Below, piece after piece: positions 3,869 to 50,082 of a DNA stretch of 50,865 bases (the stretch's first letter is position 1; each line of letters begins with the position of its first letter). This stretch comes from Escherichia phage vB_EcoS_swan01: the sequence record NC_048202.1. One strand, 5' to 3'. The position numbers were made by a program, and so were the translations under genes. The notes under the pieces were generated by a model that did not search any database, was not told the DNA's origin, and was given only the letters and a program-made list of their open reading frames with translations.

Positions 3869-3896
3869 AAAAGCCCCGCATATGCGGGGCTTTTTG
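3866..3896. terminator. bidirectional rho-independent terminator between convergent genes
   Basis: gccccgca-tat-tgcggggc hairpin flanked by A-run and T-run. Confidence 0.7.
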
Positions 3897-4395: not shown

Positions 4396-5052
<657 letters not shown>

Positions 5053-6866: not shown

Positions 6867-6911
6867 AAATAGCACTTTTTGCTAAACGCGATGCCCAAGA
6901 TCGTGTATAGT
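6867..6911 (+). promoter_or_regulatory. motif promoter-like element (AAATAGCACTTTTTGCTAAA, ~21 nt spacer, TATAGT)
   Basis: conserved motif plus -10-like hexamer about 30 nt upstream of the lipoprotein gene ATG. Confidence 0.55.
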
Positions 6912-11715: not shown

Positions 11716-11762
11716 GACTTTTAACCTTTTGTGCTGTTTCTTGGTTTGCACATTATAAAGGC

Positions 11763-17646: not shown

Positions 17647-17692
17647 TTATAGCACTTTTTGTTAAAAGTGGAATTAATTTATTTGATAGATT
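17647..17692 (+). promoter_or_regulatory. motif copy inverted relative to the late genes (TATAGCACTTTTTGTTAAAA, 22 nt, TAGATT)
   Basis: conserved motif with a -10-like hexamer at canonical spacing, but pointing antisense to the tail genes; in gene sense the motif directly abuts the AAGGAG RBS of the G gene. Confidence 0.45.
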
Positions 17693-21400: not shown

Positions 21401-21445
21401 GATAGCACTTTTTGTTAAAGCGTCAAAGCGTTTTTATGTTATTCA
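21401..21445 (+). promoter_or_regulatory. motif copy inverted relative to the late genes (GATAGCACTTTTTGTTAAAG)
   Basis: conserved motif; a weak sigma70-like arrangement TTGTTA-N17-TATGTT points antisense into 21439..22452; in gene sense the motif precedes a hairpin and the capsid gene RBS. Confidence 0.4.
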
Positions 21446-26229: not shown

Positions 26230-26250
26230 TTTTAGCAATTAGTGCTATTT
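26230..26250 (-). promoter_or_regulatory. motif copy with atypical downstream context
   Basis: AAATAGCACTAATTGCTAAAA on the minus strand overlapping the TerL stop (TAG); TATAAT lies only 8 nt after TTGCTA and a terminator hairpin follows. Confidence 0.4.
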
Positions 26251-27813
26251 ATTGCGTAGACCAGCCAGCTTTTTCATCCTTGCTACCGGATCATCAGCCA
26301 AGTTCATTTCGACGTTAACAGCATCAACTATATTATCGACAATATCATCATGGGGATGAGAATCGTCAAAAGTGAACGCTGCAACCTCTGCCAGTATCTC
26401 AGGTAACATGGGATGACTTTCTGGCAGTGCCACACGTCCGGCCCTCATTACTGGCGCGGCGTCCATTGCTCGCGTTACCTTGTCATTGCTTCGCTGAACG
26501 GGATTTATATCAATCGGGATCTTCTTTTTGGCCCCCTGAATCAAACCCGTGCCGCTGGCCTTATCCTCAATGTGGATACGTCGCAAGCTGCCACACTCCT
26601 TATTGCGCTTCCAGCACTGATTAACGAAGGCAATAAAATTTAATTCAAGATCCGGCGCTTCCCACTTTCCGCGAATGCCATCAATGAAGTAAACGCGATT
26701 CTTATACATCCCCCAATAACAAAAAACTGAATAGTCGTTAAGCTCTCCGGCCTTCTGCGCGGTATCACCAGTAATAAATGTGTATTCAAAGCGATCCGGT
26801 TTAGGAAGTGCGCATTTTTCGCCGCTGCCGTAATACTGGAACCACTCTGTTTTAAACACGTTGCCGCCAAGCGCGATGGGTTGCTGTTGGTACTGACTGG
26901 CGAACGTATAAGGATCTGCATTGCGCAATGCAAGCAATTCCTCCGCGCTTTCCTTTGCAGGCCAAAATGAATAATGAGCAACGCCATCTATCATCACTGG
27001 CTTACTTGACAACACATCACGATCAAATTCAGGCTTCAACCAATCAGGAAGCGTTTCGCGGTATTCTTTCGTAACCAGCGCCGGAATACTCACAACTTTA
27101 AACTCAATACCACCCATCCCGCCATTAAGCATAAACCAGGTGGAATCATTAACGTGTAGTCGCTGTTGCACCATAACAATCGGCGTAGTGTCTTTCATTC
27201 GACGCGATCGCACTGTGTTTTTTAACCGCATGTGGATCGCCTCACGCTTGACCTTAGAAAGCATATCATCCGGCTTGTCTGGATCGTCCAGAACCAGCAT
27301 ACCAGTAAAACCATCGTCCATATAGCCGCCACGCAAACCTGTTACCTGTCCGCCAATAGAACGTGAGTTAACTTGCAATTTAACCTTGCCGCCATCCGTA
27401 ACTATGAGATCTTTTGCGCTCGCCTTTGCCAGTTTTCCTGGCCATAGCTCTTGCCACTCAGGAGAACCGATAATCTCCTTTATCCTGTTGCTGTTTTGCT
27501 GGACAAGTCCATCACTAAACGAAAGGTTAAGGTTTCTCACCTTCCGACTTTTCAATGACGCGTAGGGTGACATGTGGATCGAGAAAATCTCAGTCTTACC
27601 GCTACCTGGCGTAATGTTGAAAATCACATTCTGCGACTCTCCATTGATGATCTTCTCTACCTCACTGCACAATAAGCTAAAATGCCAGTTGCTCTGGAAT
27701 TTTTGCCCCTGCAATAACTGAAACCAGATTCTGATCATCTTTTCGAATGAATGCTCACTGATTTCTTTAATGGCTCGCTTTTGCGCCGCCGTCAAATCTT
27801 CCCATATGATCAT
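26245..27813 (-). CDS. terminase large subunit
   Basis: 522 aa; Walker A-like ITPGSGKTE and Walker B-like LVLDDPD; C-terminal nuclease-like region; follows TerS. Confidence 0.8.
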   Translation of the reverse strand: MIIWEDLTAAQKRAIKEISEHSFEKMIRIWFQLLQGQKFQSNWHFSLLCSEVEKIINGESQNVIFNITPGSGKTEIFSIHMSPYASLKSRKVRNLNLSFSDGLVQQNSNRIKEIIGSPEWQELWPGKLAKASAKDLIVTDGGKVKLQVNSRSIGGQVTGLRGGYMDDGFTGMLVLDDPDKPDDMLSKVKREAIHMRLKNTVRSRRMKDTTPIVMVQQRLHVNDSTWFMLNGGMGGIEFKVVSIPALVTKEYRETLPDWLKPEFDRDVLSSKPVMIDGVAHYSFWPAKESAEELLALRNADPYTFASQYQQQPIALGGNVFKTEWFQYYGSGEKCALPKPDRFEYTFITGDTAQKAGELNDYSVFCYWGMYKNRVYFIDGIRGKWEAPDLELNFIAFVNQCWKRNKECGSLRRIHIEDKASGTGLIQGAKKKIPIDINPVQRSNDKVTRAMDAAPVMRAGRVALPESHPMLPEILAEVAAFTFDDSHPHDDIVDNIVDAVNVEMNLADDPVARMKKLAGLRNK

Positions 27814-29536: not shown

Positions 29537-29606
29537 TAAATCACCTTACCAGAAAAATAGCTCGTTAGAATGCGATTTAGGCGCTCTAACGGCTATGCGT
29601 TTTTAA

Positions 29607-29921
29607 TTAAAAACCGTCGAGAATCTCTCGAAAGTTGTTTAGCGTCTTAACTTTGGCCTTATCCCACGTTACAGATCCTGCATCTTCCCACGGGGAACCA
29701 GGGCCGTGATTTGTCATATCATCAATCAAGCAAGAGATCTCATCAATAACAACATCTTTTAAATGCTCGCGGTACTCAATATCTTCTACAGGCTCAAAAG
29801 CCTGAATGACACCGCCTAAAACCTGTTGCTGTGCCTTTGCCTTGTCCAAATCATCATGGATGAAACGATGCTCTTTCTTGTTCTCGTTAGTTCCGATTTG
29901 GTAGTAGTGAATATAAATCAT
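29607..29921 (-). CDS. hypothetical protein
   Basis: 104-aa ORF in a tightly packed leftward operon. Confidence 0.5.
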   Translation of the reverse strand: MIYIHYYQIGTNENKKEHRFIHDDLDKAKAQQQVLGGVIQAFEPVEDIEYREHLKDVVIDEISCLIDDMTNHGPGSPWEDAGSVTWDKAKVKTLNNFREILDGF

Positions 29922-30392: not shown

Positions 30393-30438
30393 ACTTTACC
30401 AAATGCCCTTGCGGAAGTTTTAACAAAAAGTGCTATTA
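30393..30438 (-). promoter_or_regulatory. motif promoter-like element (AATAGCACTTTTTGTTAAAA, 22 nt, TAAAGT)
   Basis: conserved motif immediately after the stop of 30436..30726, with -10-like hexamer at canonical spacing inside an inverted repeat. Confidence 0.55.
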
Positions 30439-31707: not shown

Positions 31708-31753
31708 ATTATAGCGAGGCATTGCGCCCCGCGTTTAGCAATTCGTGCTATTT
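31708..31753 (-). promoter_or_regulatory. motif promoter-like element (AAATAGCACGAATTGCTAA, 22 nt, TATAAT)
   Basis: motif overlaps the TAG stop of the kinase gene; perfect TATAAT at canonical spacing. Confidence 0.6.
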
Positions 31754-33026: not shown

Positions 33027-33073
33027 ACTATACAGCAAGCCCGATGATCTGTTTTTTGCAAAAAGTGCTATTT
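33027..33073 (-). promoter_or_regulatory. motif promoter-like element (AAATAGCACTTTTTGCAAAAAA, then TATAGT)
   Basis: motif overlaps the TAG stop of the small ORF 33068..33229; -10-like hexamer inside an inverted repeat; leader CATCAACAACAAACGAGGA. Confidence 0.55.
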
Positions 33074-34477: not shown

Positions 34478-34524
34478 CATTATACCTGGCCCCACATTTG
34501 AGTTTTAACAATTCGTGCTATTTA
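34478..34524 (-). promoter_or_regulatory. motif promoter-like element (AAATAGCACGAATTGTTAAAA, ~21 nt, TATAAT)
   Basis: motif directly follows the TAA stop of 34522..35415; perfect TATAAT within an inverted repeat; about 30-nt leader to the next ATG. Confidence 0.6.
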
Positions 34525-35815: not shown

Positions 35816-35861
35816 ATTATGCCTGGTTATCGTTTTTGAGTTTTAACAAAAAGTGCTATTT
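35816..35861 (-). promoter_or_regulatory. motif promoter-like element (AAAATAGCACTTTTTGTTAAAA, 22 nt, CATAAT)
   Basis: motif overlaps the TAG stop of the lipoprotein gene; -10-like hexamer at canonical spacing. Confidence 0.6.
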
Positions 35862-37201: not shown

Positions 37202-37247
37202 AAATAGCACTTTTTGTTAAAAATCAGGCCGCCTGATCGGGTACATT
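37202..37247 (+). promoter_or_regulatory. motif promoter-like element (AAATAGCACTTTTTGTTAAAA, 22 nt, TACATT)
   Basis: first promoter of the rightward small-gene block; leader CATCGAAACGAACC precedes the RBS. Confidence 0.6.
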
Positions 37248-38508: not shown

Positions 38509-38552
38509 ATAGCACTTTTTGTTAAAAACGATGCGCTGCTGATTGGTATAGT
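38507..38552 (+). promoter_or_regulatory. motif promoter-like element (AAATAGCACTTTTTGTTAAAA, 22 nt, TATAGT)
   Basis: motif starts inside the TAA stop of 38245..38508; -10-like hexamer inside an inverted repeat. Confidence 0.6.
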
Positions 38553-39718: not shown

Positions 39719-40429
39719 ATGTATAAAGGTTTAATATTCTCCCTATTTGATGGATCTGGTAAAGCAGTTAAAGATTGGGCTGATAATGGCTATAAGTGCA
39801 TTTGCTTTAATGCTGACGGCGGCGATCACGGTGATTACCAGTCAGTGCGCATACAGCATGAGAATATCGAATACGTTAACGTCTGGATTGATGATGCTTT
39901 TTATGTTAAGGCAATCAATAATGAGTGGGGCAATCCTGATTTTATTATGGCGTTCCCTCCTTGCACCGACCTTGCAAATAGCGGATCTCGCCATTGGGCC
40001 AAAAAACGCCTTGAGAATCCATCGTTCCAGGATGAGGCCGCCGACACTTGCAGAATCGCGGCTGATATAGCTGATTATTTCGGTGTTCCTTACATGATCG
40101 AAAATCCGGTTGGCAAGTTGTCAACGTTATGGCGTAAGCCTGATTATACGTTCCATCCGTGCGATTACGCTGGCTATCTGCCGGAAGATGATAAACATCC
40201 CGACTTCCCTGATATTATTCCGGCGCGTGATCGCTATTTTAAGAAAACGTGCCTCTGGACTGGCAACGGCTTTGTTATTCCTCCGCGCGCTTTAATCCTG
40301 CCGAAAGAGGAAGACAAAGATAATCCAGGCTGGGCCAAAACTGGCGGCAAGTCATCGCGCACAAAGATGATCCGCTCCCTCACTCCGCGCGGATTTGCTC
40401 GCGCCGTCTTTGAGTCAAACTCAAAATAG
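39719..40429 (+). CDS. DNA (cytosine-5) methyltransferase-like protein (putative)
   Basis: motif I-like LFDGSG, motif IV-like FPPCTD...SG and motif VI-like ENPVG in the canonical order; start could also be ATG 39713. Confidence 0.45.
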   Translation: MYKGLIFSLFDGSGKAVKDWADNGYKCICFNADGGDHGDYQSVRIQHENIEYVNVWIDDAFYVKAINNEWGNPDFIMAFPPCTDLANSGSRHWAKKRLENPSFQDEAADTCRIAADIADYFGVPYMIENPVGKLSTLWRKPDYTFHPCDYAGYLPEDDKHPDFPDIIPARDRYFKKTCLWTGNGFVIPPRALILPKEEDKDNPGWAKTGGKSSRTKMIRSLTPRGFARAVFESNSK

Positions 40430-40469
40430 CACTTTTTGTTAAAAGCCAGGTGTAAAAACCTGGCATAAT
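40424..40469 (+). promoter_or_regulatory. motif promoter-like element (AAATAGCACTTTTTGTTAAAA, 22 nt, CATAAT)
   Basis: TAG stop of the upstream gene lies at motif positions 4-6; inverted repeat in the spacer; leader CATCGAACAAACAAAGGAG. Confidence 0.6.
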
Positions 40470-40498
40470 CACATCGAACAAACAAAGGAGATCTGATC

Positions 40499-40885: not shown

Positions 40886-41103
40886 TAAACAGTGAAAACC
40901 GTTACAAAGTAACGCATTCTACCACAAAGACTTTCAAGCCTGGCGATATAGTCAGGCCCATCAAAAAAACTGCGGTAGGTTGGCTGATTGGTTTTTCATA
41001 TCATAAGGCGCTTTACTTTACGTTTAAGGATGGGATTACAGGAGAATGCTACAGCGACCGCCAGCCTGATCGACTTCTGGTTGCAATAGAGCGGATCAAA
41101 TAG
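40882..41103 (+). CDS. small protein (possible member of the small paralog family)
   Basis: 73 aa; TFKPGDIV motif resembles MFKPGEIY of 34227..34448. Confidence 0.5.
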   Translation: MINSENRYKVTHSTTKTFKPGDIVRPIKKTAVGWLIGFSYHKALYFTFKDGITGECYSDRQPDRLLVAIERIK

Positions 41104-41143
41104 CACTTTTTGACAAAACGGGGTAGTATTGGGACGTTAAAAT
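41098..41143 (+). promoter_or_regulatory. motif promoter-like element (AAATAGCACTTTTTGACAAAA, 22 nt, TAAAAT)
   Basis: variant with TTGACA in place of TTGTTA; TAG stop embedded; precedes the 526-aa P-loop protein gene. Confidence 0.55.
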
Positions 41144-43144: not shown

Positions 43145-43265
43145 TGATTTTATTCATGCTTTACTTACGCTACTTTATTCAGATATGCGAGCTTTTAGCA
43201 CCACTGAACATGTTTTATGCAATGATGATGGTGTGTTATTGGTTACAGTAAAGCGTATGGAATAG
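43071..43265 (+). CDS. hypothetical protein (uncertain start, overlaps upstream gene)
   Basis: its TAG stop is embedded in the conserved motif as for other genes, but the ORF overlaps 42749..43144 by 74 nt. Confidence 0.3.
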   Translation: MMNCSRQKLIDKILKHCAVNSISHDDFIHALLTLLYSDMRAFSTTEHVLCNDDGVLLVTVKRME

Positions 43266-43305
43266 CATTTTTTGTTAAAACTCCCGACCTTGTGTCGGGT
43301 ATATT
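43260..43305 (+). promoter_or_regulatory. motif promoter-like element (GAATAGCATTTTTTGTTAAAA, 22 nt, TATATT)
   Basis: hairpin cccgac-cttgtg-tcggg in the spacer; leader CATCGAAACGAACC. Confidence 0.55.
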
Positions 43306-43342: not shown

Positions 43343-43567
43343 ATGTACAGCAAGTTTTTAGTAGTTCGCGTATACAATCATGCAAATGGATCTTCTTCTG
43401 AAATCCCGACAGTTTACGATAAGGATTCAGGCTGGAGTGAGCAATCGGCGGTTGAAAATGAGCGCAAGATTGCAGAAATGTACGGCGACACTTGCAGCAT
43501 TGAAGTAAGGCAGTACGACGAATCGAACAAGCCAACAAACGAAACTCATATGTGGCCCGACGCATAA
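43343..43567 (+). CDS. hypothetical protein
   Basis: start at MYSKFLV with AAAAAGGAAA RBS. Confidence 0.5.
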   Translation: MYSKFLVVRVYNHANGSSSEIPTVYDKDSGWSEQSAVENERKIAEMYGDTCSIEVRQYDESNKPTNETHMWPDA

Positions 43568-43570
43568 AAA

Positions 43571-43598
43571 TAAAGGAGGCATTAAGCCTCCTTTTTCT
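43571..43598. terminator. bidirectional rho-independent terminator
   Basis: aggaggc-attaa-gcctcct hairpin plus T-run; overlaps the 3' end of the spanin gene. Confidence 0.6.
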
Positions 43599-43974
43599 TT
43601 TCTCTCCAGTAAAGACAAATCAGCACAATTAACACAACCACGCATATGATTACCGGATCGTACCATCTGCCGTTATTACCCTGCACGACATGAATTTTGT
43701 CTGCCTTGATGGTATTGGCCTGAATGGTTGATGTTGTGAAATCCTTCTTGCTGGACGTGTCCACCTTGTCAACCGCAGATTCCTTTATTGTGGTTTCCTG
43801 TTTTGTGCTGGCGTCCTGCTTTGCTGTAATGCCAACTGTCTGCTTCACGTTCTCCGCTCCAGCCTGTGCTGTGATTTCCGGCTTACTGCCGATTAATCCG
43901 GTCAGTGGCGTAACGCTTGAACATCCAGACAAGATCACCGCCATTGCGATTGGTGTAAGTAAAAAATTCTTCAT
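43582..43974 (-). CDS. unimolecular spanin (lipoprotein with C-terminal transmembrane anchor)
   Basis: N-terminal lipoprotein signal [18 protein letters not shown] and C-terminal TM helix VIICVVVLIVLICLYW, the architecture of T1 gp11-type u-spanins; immediately after the endolysin gene. Confidence 0.6.
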   Translation of the reverse strand: MKNFLLTPIAMAVILSGCSSVTPLTGLIGSKPEITAQAGAENVKQTVGITAKQDASTKQETTIKESAVDKVDTSSKKDFTTSTIQANTIKADKIHVVQGNNGRWYDPVIICVVVLIVLICLYWREKKKEA

Positions 43975-44465
43975 CATTTCAGATCCATTGTGCAATATTT
44001 GTATTCGACCTTGCGCCTGTTAAGTAATCCTTTAGACTTCTCGCGCTTTCCTGTTTTTGGGTTATGGTAATAAGTCCAACGATAAAGCTGATCGCAAGCC
44101 TCGTTTAATTTCCCCTGGTTGATGAGTTTCAGCATTGTTGAATTTCTGAAAGCCCCCACACCTGCATTGTAAGTGAATGAGTACATTGCTGCACGCATAC
44201 TATCAGGAATATCAACCTTAACTTTCTTGTCAACTTCCTTTTTAGCAACCTGGATATGCTTAGCCAACAAAGCATCACACTCTTTTTTAGTGTACGTTTT
44301 CCCCAGGATAACATCTGGTCCGGTGATTCCTGCGCAAACCGTCCATACTCCAGCAATATCTTTGTATGGCTTGTATCTTACCCCTTCGATCTCTTCAAGA
44401 AGTGGAGAAGTCAAGGCAACCGCAACGCCAAAGGCCGCAGCCGCTACCCTGTTCTTTATGCTCAT
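43974..44465 (-). CDS. SAR endolysin (GH24 lysozyme)
   Basis: N-terminal signal-anchor-release segment [17 protein letters not shown] followed by T4-lysozyme-like catalytic region ([22 protein letters not shown]). Confidence 0.8.
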
Positions 44466-44680
44466 TACTTGCCCCTGATTTCAATAGCTTTTTGAATATC
44501 ACCTTTTTCGATCGCTTCGTGGAATTTTTTACTATCACGCCAGCGAAGGTAAGCGCCCCATGCACCGAATGCAGCCATTAAAACAAAGCTGGCAATAGCA
44601 ATGGTTAACTGCCCTGTAGCGGCGCTTGCGATAGATGAACCGCCAGATCCAGCGGTAGCTGCGTTAATAAAATCTTTCAT
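44465..44680 (-). CDS. holin (pinholin-like)
   Basis: 71 aa, two hydrophobic helices and charged C-terminus; precedes a SAR endolysin. Confidence 0.6.
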
Positions 44681-44703
44681 TTTTATTCTCCATATTAATT
44701 AAA

Positions 44704-44717
44704 GTCAATATATTGAC
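44704..44717. promoter_or_regulatory. perfect 14-bp palindrome GTCAATATATTGAC upstream of the holin gene (operator-like)
   Basis: exact inverted repeat about 25-40 nt upstream of the holin start. Confidence 0.4.
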
Positions 44718-44825
44718 CGAATGATAAACGTACATGGTAAAAAATTAAACAAAAAAAAGAGGCGACAAACGCCGCCCCTTTGCAAGTTTTTGATTTAATT
44801 TGTCATTGATTTAAATAAAAATTCA

Positions 44826-45941
44826 TCAATTCATCATTTCTGGATAGTGAACAAATCGCCCAACCTCTCCATGCTCTTTGTCGTAAATGATAACCGCCGC
44901 ACGGCGTCGAGATCTCCAGCCACCTCGCGCGGCGTATGCGTCTTTTGCCGCCAGGGTGCTATGCACCTCAACGATGCCAAGCGACGTTTCTGTCACGGTC
45001 TGGTGATGCCAGTGCCCTACGTGCGCATACATCGTTTTTGAGTTTCCGAAGTCCTCCCGCCAATCTGACGCGCACATCATTAGCAAAGTCTCCGGTTTAC
45101 GCACTGTGTGCCCGTGATGGTACGCAAGGAAAGTTTTTCCGTATTGCGTGTGGTGCACAACGCGAGGTGAAACATCAACGTAAACGCGCGGCTCGTTTTC
45201 ATATGCTGCCGCCATTGCTGCGCGCAGCCAAATCATTCCTGATTGGTCATGATTGCCCTCTACGATCTGGACTTCAACATGTTTATGCTTTAACAACATT
45301 TTATTGATTGCGCGTCGCATTGCACGGATGGCAACGTAAACCAATTTTGCATATCGACTATCTTGATCCAGTACGTGACCGCTTGCAGGTGTAACCGCCT
45401 CCAGGCCGTCGCTATGCAGCATATCGCCACCAATCAGGATGACAGCCTTTTCGCTATCCGGTGCGCACATTAAAGCATAGTCGATAAAGTTATTCATAAC
45501 GCGCTCTGCCGTGGCAGTATCCCAATTTTCGCCGCATTCGTGCTTATGGGCCATAGCTCCTAAGTGCATGTCAAAGATCGGATACAAGGAAAGCGTTTCG
45601 TTATAGTCGCGCTCCTGTAATGGAACCGGATCTAATCGCGGCACTTCCTCGCTAAATGCCTCCATTGCTGCGAGCATTAATGCTTCTAATTGCTCTTTAT
45701 CCTTGCTGGTTTTAGTCCACTTTAGGATTATGTTGCCTTCTTTGTCAGTCATTACTGACTCACCATGAACTCCAAAACCAGGCGCTCCAATGGTGGATAC
45801 CTGGCCTTGCTTTGCAAGTCGCGCCGCGCGACGCTCGACGCTTCTCACATTCATTCCGTACTCTTGAGCGATCTGTTTATATGTCTTACCCGCCGCCCGT
45901 TCGATCTTGAATTGCTCATCTGTAATTTTTACATTTTTCAT
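44826..45941 (-). CDS. calcineurin-like metallophosphatase with N-terminal HTH-like domain
   Basis: GDMLHSD and GNHD metallophosphoesterase motifs; N-terminal TYKQIAQEYGMNVRSVERR helix-turn-helix-like segment; start at MKNVKIT with AGGTGG RBS. Confidence 0.6.
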   Translation of the reverse strand: MKNVKITDEQFKIERAAGKTYKQIAQEYGMNVRSVERRAARLAKQGQVSTIGAPGFGVHGESVMTDKEGNIILKWTKTSKDKEQLEALMLAAMEAFSEEVPRLDPVPLQERDYNETLSLYPIFDMHLGAMAHKHECGENWDTATAERVMNNFIDYALMCAPDSEKAVILIGGDMLHSDGLEAVTPASGHVLDQDSRYAKLVYVAIRAMRRAINKMLLKHKHVEVQIVEGNHDQSGMIWLRAAMAAAYENEPRVYVDVSPRVVHHTQYGKTFLAYHHGHTVRKPETLLMMCASDWREDFGNSKTMYAHVGHWHHQTVTETSLGIVEVHSTLAAKDAYAARGGWRSRRRAAVIIYDKEHGEVGRFVHYPEMMN

Positions 45942-46035
45942 TCTGCCACCTATCTCATCACTATATGGTACATAACTGTAACAGCGATGATAACGGGTAA
46001 CGGTAGAACAAACAAGCGCCACATGATAACTATCC

Positions 46036-46479: not shown

Positions 46480-46525
46480 ATTATGCCCGACAAAATGCCG
46501 GGCGTTTTAACAAAAAGTGCTATTA
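46480..46525 (-). promoter_or_regulatory. motif promoter-like element (AATAGCACTTTTTGTTAAAA, 22 nt, CATAAT)
   Basis: follows the stop of 46523..46780; inverted repeat in the spacer; conserved leader. Confidence 0.6.
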
Positions 46526-47549: not shown

Positions 47550-47595
47550 ATTATGGCGCAATCCATCGCGCCAGTTTTAACAAAAAGTGCTATTT
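47550..47595 (-). promoter_or_regulatory. motif promoter-like element (AAATAGCACTTTTTGTTAAAA, 22 nt, CATAAT)
   Basis: TAG stop of the VRR-NUC gene embedded in the motif; drives the Dam gene. Confidence 0.6.
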
Positions 47596-50038: not shown

Positions 50039-50082
50039 ATAATAGACTCATTACAATAAACTGTTTTAACAAAAAATGCTAT
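50039..50082 (-). promoter_or_regulatory. motif promoter-like element (ATAGCATTTTTTGTTAAAA, 22 nt, TATTAT) in a divergent region
   Basis: drives the helicase gene; on the opposite strand the motif abuts the GAGGTGA RBS of the HTH gene. Confidence 0.55.

Follow-up and report, generated by a model that had tools for sequence, protein, structure and literature searches.

A T1-type lysis cassette in Escherichia phage vB_EcoS_swan01 and the palindrome upstream of its holin gene

Three short, overlapping genes of Escherichia phage vB_EcoS_swan01 raise two questions: whether they make up a lysis cassette of a known type, and whether the perfect 14-bp palindrome in front of them is an operator that controls the timing of lysis, as a sequence-only reading of the same DNA had proposed. 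The window is the whole stretch of DNA that was analyzed (NC_048202.1, 50,865 nucleotides) and comes from a T1-like siphophage (Drexlerviridae, Warwickvirus). In our reading, with a probability of roughly 0.9, the locus is the canonical lysis module, working in three steps, of a T1-like coliphage of this genus. The palindrome probably arose by accident within a lineage, around a TTGAC box that is conserved, and is not likely to be an operator.

Layout and relatives of the cassette

The minus strand carries all three lysis genes, and the region under study extends from 43582, the final base of the spanin stop codon, to 44717, the outer end of the palindrome. The features of the locus and its borders are listed here in the direction of transcription.

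44756–44781, minus strand: intrinsic terminator (11-pair stem and T-run) that closes the upstream phosphoesterase/exonuclease gene and insulates the lysis cassette
44721–44726, minus strand: TATCAT, the -10-like hexamer of a candidate promoter, P1, just past the terminator T-run; the sister haplotype reads TATTAT
44704–44717, either strand: perfect 14-bp palindrome GTCAATATATTGAC, -37 to -24 from the holin ATG
44703–44708, minus strand: TTGACT box (-35-like) that makes up the palindrome's right arm and is conserved at some 28 nt upstream of the holin ATG
44688–44691, minus strand: GGAG Shine-Dalgarno motif, read from the sequence 7 nt ahead of the holin ATG
44465–44680, minus strand: holin gene of the T1 gp13 family, 71 aa (PHROG 2877, identity to T1 gp13, hydropathy)
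43974–44465, minus strand: SAR endolysin gene of the GH24/T4-lysozyme type, 163 aa (3hde, PF00959, identity to T1 gp12)
43582–43977, minus strand: unimolecular spanin gene of the T1 gp11 family, 131 aa (PHROG 1804, identity to gp11, hydropathy, Cys positions)
43572–43594, found on both strands: intrinsic terminator for both directions, which also serves the convergent plus-strand gene

The three genes claimed between 43582 and 44717 are present, and their compact, overlapping arrangement is read directly at the junctions: the holin stop and the endolysin start overlap by one base (TAATG), and the first ATG of the spanin overlaps the endolysin stop (ATGA). The two overlaps would couple the three genes translationally. 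Upstream of the holin lies an intergenic spacer of 145 bp, and a strong intrinsic terminator stands on either side of the unit as a whole. The upstream one (-16.6 kcal/mol, z = -3.9) is conserved in position in all relatives; the stem of the downstream one (-16.8 kcal/mol, z = -4.8) holds the last spanin codons (KEA-stop), and T1 has an annotated terminator at the equivalent place. A search of known RNA families over 43400–44900 gave sub-threshold matches on the terminators only.

The profile matches to PHROG and Pfam place the gene cassette far above chance, and close relatives are abundant. Over 1501 bp, the lysis region is 99.4% identical to phage tinuso, and some 60 other Warwickvirus genomes are likewise matched, nucleotide identity across the region being 97–99.4% for tinuso, tonn, JK16, JLBYU01, FritzSarasin, and others. 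The encoded proteins are identical or near-identical, and the records of these phages already label the genes as holin, endolysin, and (putative unimolecular) spanin. The cassette is an ordinary module, which reviews describe and which GenBank genomes nearly identical to this one already have annotated.

The same gene order is found in T1 (genes 13-12-11, for holin, endolysin, and the u-spanin gp11), with proteins of 71, 162, and 133 aa as compared with 71, 163, and 131 aa here and identities of 55%, 67%, and 47%, respectively. Further points of likeness are the LSGC lipobox, the C-terminal helix, and the KKEA end of the spanin, the overlapping junctions, the overlap of a terminator with the spanin stop, and the neighbor that converges on the cassette. 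T1 differs in that an HNH endonuclease gene and a small SH3/DUF7244 gene (gene 14) lie between exonuclease and holin (PMC13164509), where the window has only the 145-bp spacer. The gene-level reading agrees with the published lysis modules of the T1 family, in which T1gp11-family cassettes consist of a pinholin, a SAR endolysin, and a unimolecular spanin (PMC6139136, PMC13164509, PMC11447400). Compared with phage 21, the window has a one-piece spanin instead of Rz/Rz1 and is without late control of the Q/pR' type.

Endolysin, spanin, and holin

The claim of a SAR endolysin is borne out by an alignment with the crystallized R21 of phage 21 that runs over the full length and includes the SAR segment (PDB 3hde, E = 7e-47, residues 2–159). 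The PDB matches 3hde and 3hdf (R21) and 4zpu (RrrD) range from 7e-47 to 7e-45, accompanied by profile matches to Pfam PF00959 Phage_lysozyme (5e-39) and PHROG (4.3e-55). The catalytic triad, which is that of R21, reads E27-x8-D36-x5-T42 (44340–44387) and is invariant in T1 gp12 (67% identity). The SAR segment spans approximately aa 7–23 (44397–44447); residues 2–23 align with residues 4–25 of R21 in the full-length crystal form, and the hydrophobic core is short and Ala/Gly-rich, as in R21. Its 15-residue core scores +2.3 kcal/mol, compared with +0.35 for R21, and the linker from the SAR segment to the catalytic Glu is 6 residues shorter than in R21. An A-V-A motif at aa 15–17 might be called cleavable by signal-peptide predictors; homology to R21 suggests that the N-terminus stays uncleaved and that the enzyme is released from the membrane on depolarization.

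The spanin (MMKNF at its start) had been described as a lipoprotein with a C-terminal transmembrane anchor of the T1 gp11 type, and this description is upheld by three properties. It has 47% identity to T1 gp11 over the full length, where the family is defined by at least 40% identity over at least 40% of the length (Kongari et al. 2018). Its lipobox, LSGC at aa 16–19 (43921–43932; Cys19, Ser at position +2), is the same as that of T1 gp11, which has been tested experimentally (PMC6139136). Its C-terminal membrane helix, at approximately aa 108–124 (43606–43656), has the sequence VIICVVVLIVLICLY, with a mean KD of 2.46 and -5.2 kcal/mol for a 15-residue window, and is followed by a short basic tail, REKKKEA. 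Cys is confined to position 19 (lipobox) and to positions 112 and 121 (TMD), leaving none in the periplasmic part. PHROG 1804 ("Rz-like spanin") is matched at 1.2e-46, and the NCBIfam search gave sub-threshold matches only. Within the family, complementation of the lambda Rz/Rz1 defect in outer-membrane disruption has been demonstrated for T1 gp11 alone (PMC6139136). As far as the tools tell, the endolysin has no cleavable signal peptide and the spanin does not lack its C-terminal helix, the two points on which the sequence-only reading had staked itself.

The holin is recognized by a match to PHROG 2877 (3.8e-32) and by 55% identity to T1 gp13; the NCBIfam search found no model for it. Of the "two-helix, pinholin-like" holin proposed before, one helix is clear (aa 25–45, 44546–44608, followed by a charged C-tail), and its aa 25–43 are comparable to TMD2 of the phage 21 holin S21. 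The second segment (aa 4–22, 44615–44671) is just weakly hydrophobic, Gly/Ala/Ser/Thr-rich, and SAR-like, and leaves the two-helix description only half visible. "Pinholin-like" is reasonable as an analogy, given the size of 71 aa and the two-segment hydropathy pattern shared with S21, and it fails as a statement of membership: BLASTP found no alignment with S21, PF04971 (Phage_holin_2_1) is not matched by this holin, whereas S21 itself matches it at 8.6e-36, and Met1 is the single start, the next Met being Met35, which leaves no dual-start antiholin. On the first two of these results, sequence homology to S21 was rejected. The holins of Tlsvirus relatives do have M1...M7 (cf. PMC11447400).

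It is possible, though less likely, that the holin is a single-pass protein (N-out, C-in) whose Gly/Ala/Ser-rich N-terminus stays periplasmic, and not a two-helix pinholin. The T1 GenBank record says of gp13 that it "contains single transmembrane domain", the two segments here are separated by two residues (GQ) alone, and the N-terminal segment is clearly unfavorable on the Wimley-White octanol scale (+5.7 kcal/mol, as against -0.7 for S21 TMD1); the missing homology to S21 and its Pfam family points the same way. On the biological scale its +7.8 kcal/mol is also unfavorable, but TMD1 of S21, experimentally established as a SAR segment, comes out nearly equal there (+6.4) and in KD (0.64, compared with 0.70 here), and the aa 4–22 segment with its GG core is conserved across the family. 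Moreover, S21 in its final activated topology likewise has its N-terminus out and a single TMD left in the membrane, which makes the two models functionally convergent. The SAR endolysin that pinholins require (PMC6139136) is always found as the partner of this gene, and here the adjacent overlapping gene is indeed the R21 homolog.

Taken as a canonical module, the cassette would act in three steps. The 71-aa gp13-type holin would build up in the inner membrane, trigger at a programmed time, and depolarize the membrane, presumably as the pinholin that the literature takes this family to encode. No T1-family holin is known to form pinholes. The R21-type endolysin would meanwhile be exported by Sec, and its N-terminal SAR segment, weakly hydrophobic, would keep it inactive in the membrane; depolarization would free it into the periplasm, where it would refold to an active muramidase (E27/D36/T42) and degrade the murein. 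The gp11-type spanin would be anchored to the outer membrane through the lipid on Cys19 and to the inner one by way of its C-terminal helix and, once the murein mesh is gone, would destroy the outer membrane, presumably by fusion with the inner membrane.

The TTGAC box and the promoter candidates

Within the 145-bp spacer, one half of the palindrome is a conserved element. TTGAC(A/T) occurs at -27 to -31 in 18 of 27 diverged lineage representatives, where about 0.01 would be expected per sequence, and in 13 of these 18 it lies exactly at -28, the spacer that follows the box being not conserved in sequence. The box is absent in T1, in Webervirus-like phages, and in other lineages. T1, which lacks it at -28, has an inverted repeat of its own in the upstream region, TCAAAT-aa-ATTTGA within a promoter-like site TTGTGT-17-TAAAAT. 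We propose that selection acts on one half of the palindrome only, the box some 28 nt ahead of the ATG, whose role is most likely that of a sigma-70 -35-type contact or another signal in the 5' leader.

Two promoter arrangements come into question at the holin. TATCAT is a candidate -10 of P1, as judged from the sequence: TTTAAT-17-TATCAT scores 8.4 as a promoter, and the diverged relatives that we inspected have a TAnnAT hexamer at the corresponding position. A GGAG/GAGG-type Shine-Dalgarno precedes the holin in most relatives inspected. In the other arrangement, which we consider doubtful, the conserved box would be the -35 of a genuine sigma-70 promoter, its -10 (nAnnAT) closing with the AT of the holin ATG, or else a sigma-dependent pause or RNA polymerase docking site. 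Such a promoter would fire about 8 nt into the ORF and give holin-less transcripts for endolysin and spanin; a pause or docking site would tune the holin:endolysin ratio. The position of the box, held while the spacer sequence varies, speaks for this, as does the finding that TTGACW-18-nAnnAT is the top PWM match in most box-bearing lineages and is also found by consensus scan. In the window, TTGACT-18-AAAAAT is the top PWM match of the holin upstream region, and a GGGG Shine-Dalgarno-like sequence of its own precedes the endolysin ATG. However, the start codon overlaps with the best -10 partner of the box, so that transcription would start inside the holin ORF; two of the six -10 matches are supplied by the ATG itself, and an A at -3 is common anyway. 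Tlsvirus-type lineages, furthermore, have the box at -30/-31 and no A2/T6 hexamer at a workable spacing, and T1, Webervirus-like, and other lineages do without it.

As a genome-wide motif TTGACW was rejected, with TTGACWTTT at chance level, and the 63 TTGAC[AT] sites in the genome show no general association with starts. The sites at 738 (plus strand) and at 4451, 6499, and 36648 (minus strand) look like ordinary sigma-70 promoters. A divergent plus-strand promoter from the other TTGAC of the palindrome was discarded for want of a usable -10, as read from the sequence.

The repeated regulatory motif that is recognizable in this phage is the 21-nt direct repeat of TLS and T1, aaATAGCACnnnTTGnTAAAA (PMC11447400), which is missing from the holin upstream region. 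The repeat-type promoter ATAGCAC...TTGnTAAAA, standard in this phage, is absent upstream of the holin. Few other gene blocks in the genome lack a promoter of this type in front, as the lysis cassette does.

The palindrome: operator or accident

The palindrome had been placed about 25–40 nt upstream of the holin start, and at -37 to -24 from the ATG that position is correct. Its interpretation as an operator found no support, given its chance frequency, its single copy, its breakage in 4 of 10 Warwickvirus genomes, and a left arm found in 2 of 18 diverged lineages. We regard it as very improbable that a dimeric DNA-binding protein of phage or host sits on both arms and represses or times lysis transcription. 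The setting is suggestive: a perfect palindrome inside the 145-bp intergenic region, between the terminator and the holin ribosome-binding site, which overlaps the expected transcription start if TATCAT is the -10, with an upstream gene whose product has a weak, sub-threshold HTH-like N-terminus. Against this, the palindrome is not statistically unusual: the window contains six perfect 14-bp palindromes, compared with 4.1 +/- 2.0 in 100 dinucleotide shuffles, 24 of which reach six. The genome contains no second copy, and allowing up to 3 mismatches gives none beyond chance. Where the window has the perfect palindrome, a Warwickvirus sub-lineage (FritzSarasin, JLBYU26, mar001J1, and PeterMerian, 4 of 10 genomes) carries GTTAATATATTGAC, an uncompensated C->T at 44715 in the left arm that breaks the symmetry, and one of these genomes has a 100% identical holin. 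Of the 18 diverged lineages in which TTGAC, the right arm, is retained, two have GTCAA of the left arm upstream, both with a different spacing, and the palindrome has no resemblance to the real repeated regulatory motif of the phage, a different sequence present in 19 copies. An IHF-like core (TCAAnnnnTTG) in the left arm and center was dropped as a candidate, since relatives do not conserve it; the IHF consensus is WATCAANNNNTTR.

More improbable still is an action in RNA, as a 5' hairpin that stabilizes the lysis mRNA or an sdi-like structure choosing between two holin starts: the C->U of the variant haplotype would still permit a G-U pair, and TLS has an inverted repeat upstream of a dual-start holin (PMC11447400), but the hairpin has just -2.1 kcal/mol (0 kcal/mol in the variant, which does not fold), the minimum-energy fold of the 61-nt leader bypasses it (z-score 0.01), no common fold is apparent in the leaders of 22 relatives, each folded separately, and the holin has its single start; on these grounds the candidate was rejected. 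Seen as an accident of lineage, the palindrome would not be a functional unit at all, its left half being a chance complement to the box that is restricted to part of one genus.

For the lysis genes themselves, this analysis means little beyond correct annotation, and we advise against keeping the palindrome among regulatory candidates. What it brings forward is the TTGACW box, footprinted across diverged T1-like phages at a near-fixed distance from the holin start, together with a cassette that has no repeat-type promoter, which bears on how T1-like phages time lysis. We suggest, quite tentatively and as an unlikely reading, that the box, which most Tempevirinae and Braunvirinae-like lineages keep about 28 nt upstream of the holin start, is devoted to the timing of lysis; it might, for example, be a second sigma-70 promoter that overlaps the start codon, or a sigma-dependent pause site, and uncouple the synthesis of endolysin and spanin from that of the holin. 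If true, this would be a layer of control not yet described for T1-like phages.

The lysis cassette and its flanks

A lysis cassette of holin, endolysin and spanin had been claimed from the sequence alone. This was borne out by the open reading frames and their overlaps, by PHROG and Pfam matches, and by homologues in T1, where genes 13, 12 and 11 lie in the same order with 55, 67 and 47% identity to the window holin, endolysin and spanin, respectively. The region contains:

44826-46022, minus strand: phosphoesterase/"DNA repair exonuclease" gene upstream of the holin, 398 aa, stop at 44826
44681-44825: intergenic spacer 5' of the holin, 145 bp
44781-44756, minus strand: strong intrinsic terminator upstream of the cassette (-16.6 kcal/mol, z -3.9)
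44704-44717: perfect 14-bp palindrome GTCAATATATTGAC, -37 to -24 from the holin ATG
44680..44465, minus strand: holin ORF, 71 aa
44465..43974, minus strand: endolysin ORF, 163 aa
43977..43582, minus strand: spanin ORF, 131 aa
43572-43594, both strands: strong bidirectional terminator hairpin downstream of the cassette (-16.8 kcal/mol, z -4.8)
43343-43567, plus strand: small convergent gene downstream of the cassette

The cassette is thus a unit bracketed by both strong intrinsic terminators. Holin and endolysin overlap by one base (TAATG), and endolysin and spanin by four (ATGA). The spanin begins with two adjacent ATGs (MMKNF; 43972-43977, minus strand); its overlap with the endolysin stop involves the first of these alone. 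T1 gp11, by contrast, begins MKLKK. The spanin's final codons, AAG GAG GCT TAA (K-E-A-stop; 43582-43594, minus strand), make up the 5' side of the stem in the bidirectional terminator. Given that the C-terminal KKEA is invariant between the window phage and T1, and that the T1 terminator likewise overlaps the gene end, these bases may be under a dual coding and terminator constraint.

Megablast of 43400-44900 returned Escherichia phage tinuso (99.4% identity, 100% coverage) and about 60 further genomes at 97-99% identity. These relatives belong to the Drexlerviridae, Tempevirinae, genus Warwickvirus, and their records already label the genes holin, endolysin, and "Rz-like spanin", "putative unimolecular spanin" or "u-spanin". 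As far as the genes go, the sequence-only reading is right, and it was known before. T1 carries an SH3/DUF7244 gene (gene 14) between exonuclease and pinholin, and a standalone gene of this type was recently reported as widespread in Drexlerviridae lysis modules (PMC13164509). It is absent in the window's genus, where no gene separates phosphoesterase and holin. The mechanical ORF of the phosphoesterase runs on upstream as far as a TTG (46091), and the product's residues about 43-74 hold a sub-threshold helix-turn-helix-like stretch (Sigma70_r4_2, E=0.0017; HTH_28, E=0.007).

The three lysis proteins

The endolysin matches Pfam Phage_lysozyme (5e-39), and its best solved structures are 3hde (E=7e-47), 4zpu (RrrD) and 3hdf, the first being the full-length, membrane form of R21, the endolysin of phage 21. 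The N-terminal segment of R21 is an experimentally established signal-anchor-release (SAR) domain; since the alignment to R21 spans residues 2 to 159, it covers this segment. This homology supports the proposed SAR endolysin. The E-x8-D-x5-T triad (E27/D36/T42) is invariant with T1 gp12. The N-terminal core is short and Ala/Gly-rich, with hydrophobicity below even that of R21, and is joined to the catalytic Glu by a linker six residues shorter than R21's. A predictor might propose cleavage at the A-V-A motif of residues 15-17; R21 has a comparable A-I-A motif and was crystallised full-length with the N-terminal segment present (3hde).

The spanin fits the unimolecular T1 gp11 type, as suggested. 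Under the standard +2 rule Ser at this position implies outer-membrane sorting; the spanin has Ser at +2, and its predicted destination is therefore the outer membrane. The C-terminal transmembrane helix, on which the sequence-only reading had made the assignment depend, is predicted at about 108-124 and strongly hydrophobic (-5.2 kcal/mol over 15 residues, KD mean 2.46), followed by the tail REKKKEA. The protein matches PHROG 1804 "Rz-like spanin" (1.2e-46), and its 47% identity to gp11 over the full length places it in the T1gp11 family by the published 40%/40% criterion. Its N-terminal lipobox, LSGC, is that of T1 gp11, where it has been mutated experimentally (PMC6139136). The protein has no periplasmic Cys, a trait that every u-spanin is reported to share (PMC6139136).

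The holin matches PHROG 2877 "holin" (3.8e-32) and no family above threshold in Pfam or NCBIfam. Just one helix is unambiguous (aa 25-45), and the C-tail is charged (net +3); GQ is the sole spacer between this helix and an N-terminal segment (aa 4-22) that is 79% Gly/Ala/Ser/Thr. We compared this segment with TMD1 of the phage 21 pinholin S21, a proven SAR helix, using the S21 sequence from the phage 21 record.

Hydrophobicity of holin aa 4-22 and S21 TMD1
Kyte-Doolittle mean: 0.70 vs 0.64
Biological-scale sum: +7.8 vs +6.4 kcal/mol
Wimley-White octanol scale: +5.7 vs -0.7 kcal/mol

Membership of the S21 family was rejected, as BLASTP gave no alignment between the window holin and S21, and the holin has no match to PF04971, the family to which S21 belongs. 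T1-family holins (class II) are called pinholins on bioinformatic grounds (PMC6139136, PMC11447400, PMC13164509), and the GenBank note on the T1 holin reads "single transmembrane domain". We retain the description pinholin-like but do not place the holin in the S21 family; that the holin works like a pinholin is the likeliest reading (probability about 0.6-0.7). Unlike the holins of Tlsvirus relatives, which have M1...M7 (PMC11447400), that of the window phage offers one start only.

Palindrome and TTGACW box upstream of the holin

The palindrome is present as described, but its suggested role as an operator is not supported, and four tests speak against a functional dyad. Perfect palindromes of 14 bp number six in the window; dinucleotide shuffles give 4.1±2.0, and 24/100 of them reach six. 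There are no further copies in the window, and three-mismatch matches are at chance level. Four of ten Warwickvirus genomes (FritzSarasin, JLBYU26, mar001J1, PeterMerian) carry GTTAATATATTGAC in its place with no compensating change, and the PeterMerian holin is 100% identical despite it. Folded as RNA, the palindrome gives a hairpin of -2.1 kcal/mol, against 0 for the variant; the leader in full shows no more structure than its shuffled versions (z=0.01), and no common fold was apparent in the leaders of 22 relatives, each folded separately.

Three perfect 16-bp palindromes in the window are longer: CCCCGCATATGCGGGG, TGCATTGCGCAATGCA and GTTTTTAATTAAAAAC (3874-3889, 26917-26932, 29599-29614), that at 3874-3889 resembling a terminator stem. 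Unrelated short inverted repeats, sporadic and of unfixed spacing, occur close to the holin promoter region in other lineages, such as TCAAAT-aa-ATTTGA within a TTGTGT-17-TAAAAT site in T1 (L003, 4821-4834) and GTCAA-N7/8-TTGAC upstream of the holin in L026 and L019.

What is conserved is a TTGAC(A/T) box, which forms the palindrome's right arm (44708..44703). A collection of 92 holin loci from IMG/VR and GenBank phages, with 67 distinct upstream regions, was reduced to 27 representatives whose upstream regions have little residual similarity (8-mer Jaccard <0.30). The box starts at -27 to -31 in 18 of these, and at exactly -28 in thirteen, against a background expectation of about 0.01 per sequence; a complementary GTCAA lies upstream in just 2 of the 18, at differing spacings. 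It is absent from T1/Tunavirus, the Klebsiella (Webervirus-like) group and a few others. Right behind the T-run of the terminator, 12-20 nt upstream of the box, comes a -10-like TAnnAT (TATCAT in the window, 44726..44721; TATTAT in the sister haplotype). A simple PWM scan ranks TTGACW-18-nAnnAT, whose AT is the first bases of the holin ATG, as the top sigma-70-like site in most box-bearing lineages; window scores are 9.9 for TTGACT-18-AAAAAT and 8.4 for TTTAAT-17-TATCAT. If a promoter, TTGACW-18-nAnnAT would start inside the holin ORF, and in the Tlsvirus group the spacing leaves no usable -10. We regard the conserved box, at its near-fixed distance from the holin start, as the one mildly new item.

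Direct repeats in the window

A 21-nt direct repeat, aaATAGCACnnnTTGnTAAAA, was described for TLS as of unknown function (PMC11447400). The T1/TLS repeat ATAGCACnnnTTGnTAAAA has 19 matches in the window against 2.7 expected (0/100 shuffles reach 19), all oriented along transcription:

Plus strand: 6869-6887, 17649-17667, 21402-21420, 37204-37222, 38509-38527, 40426-40444, 41100-41118, 43262-43280
Minus strand: 888-906, 26230-26248, 30418-30436, 31733-31751, 33053-33071, 34503-34521, 35841-35859, 46505-46523, 47575-47593, 50064-50082
Minus strand, with 3 mismatches: 11719-11737

A GC-rich inverted repeat, varying in sequence by site, often lies between direct repeat and -10 hexamer, partly over the latter (e.g., cgCCCGGCattttGTCGGGCATAAT). 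Examples 20-30 nt downstream of repeats are at 46504-46480 (minus), 40445-40470 (plus), 47574-47550 (minus) and 43281-43305 (plus); the inverted repeat may act as a promoter spacer that is structured or bound by protein.

Most copies of the direct repeat are followed after about 18-19 nt by a (C/T)ATAAT-like hexamer, then a ribosome-binding site (SD) and ATG, and the repeat resembles a standard promoter module of this phage. The holin has no copy in front of it; the closest on the minus strand is at 46523..46505. The phage's recognisable repeated control element is therefore a sequence other than the palindrome, and the lysis cassette lies outside that regime.
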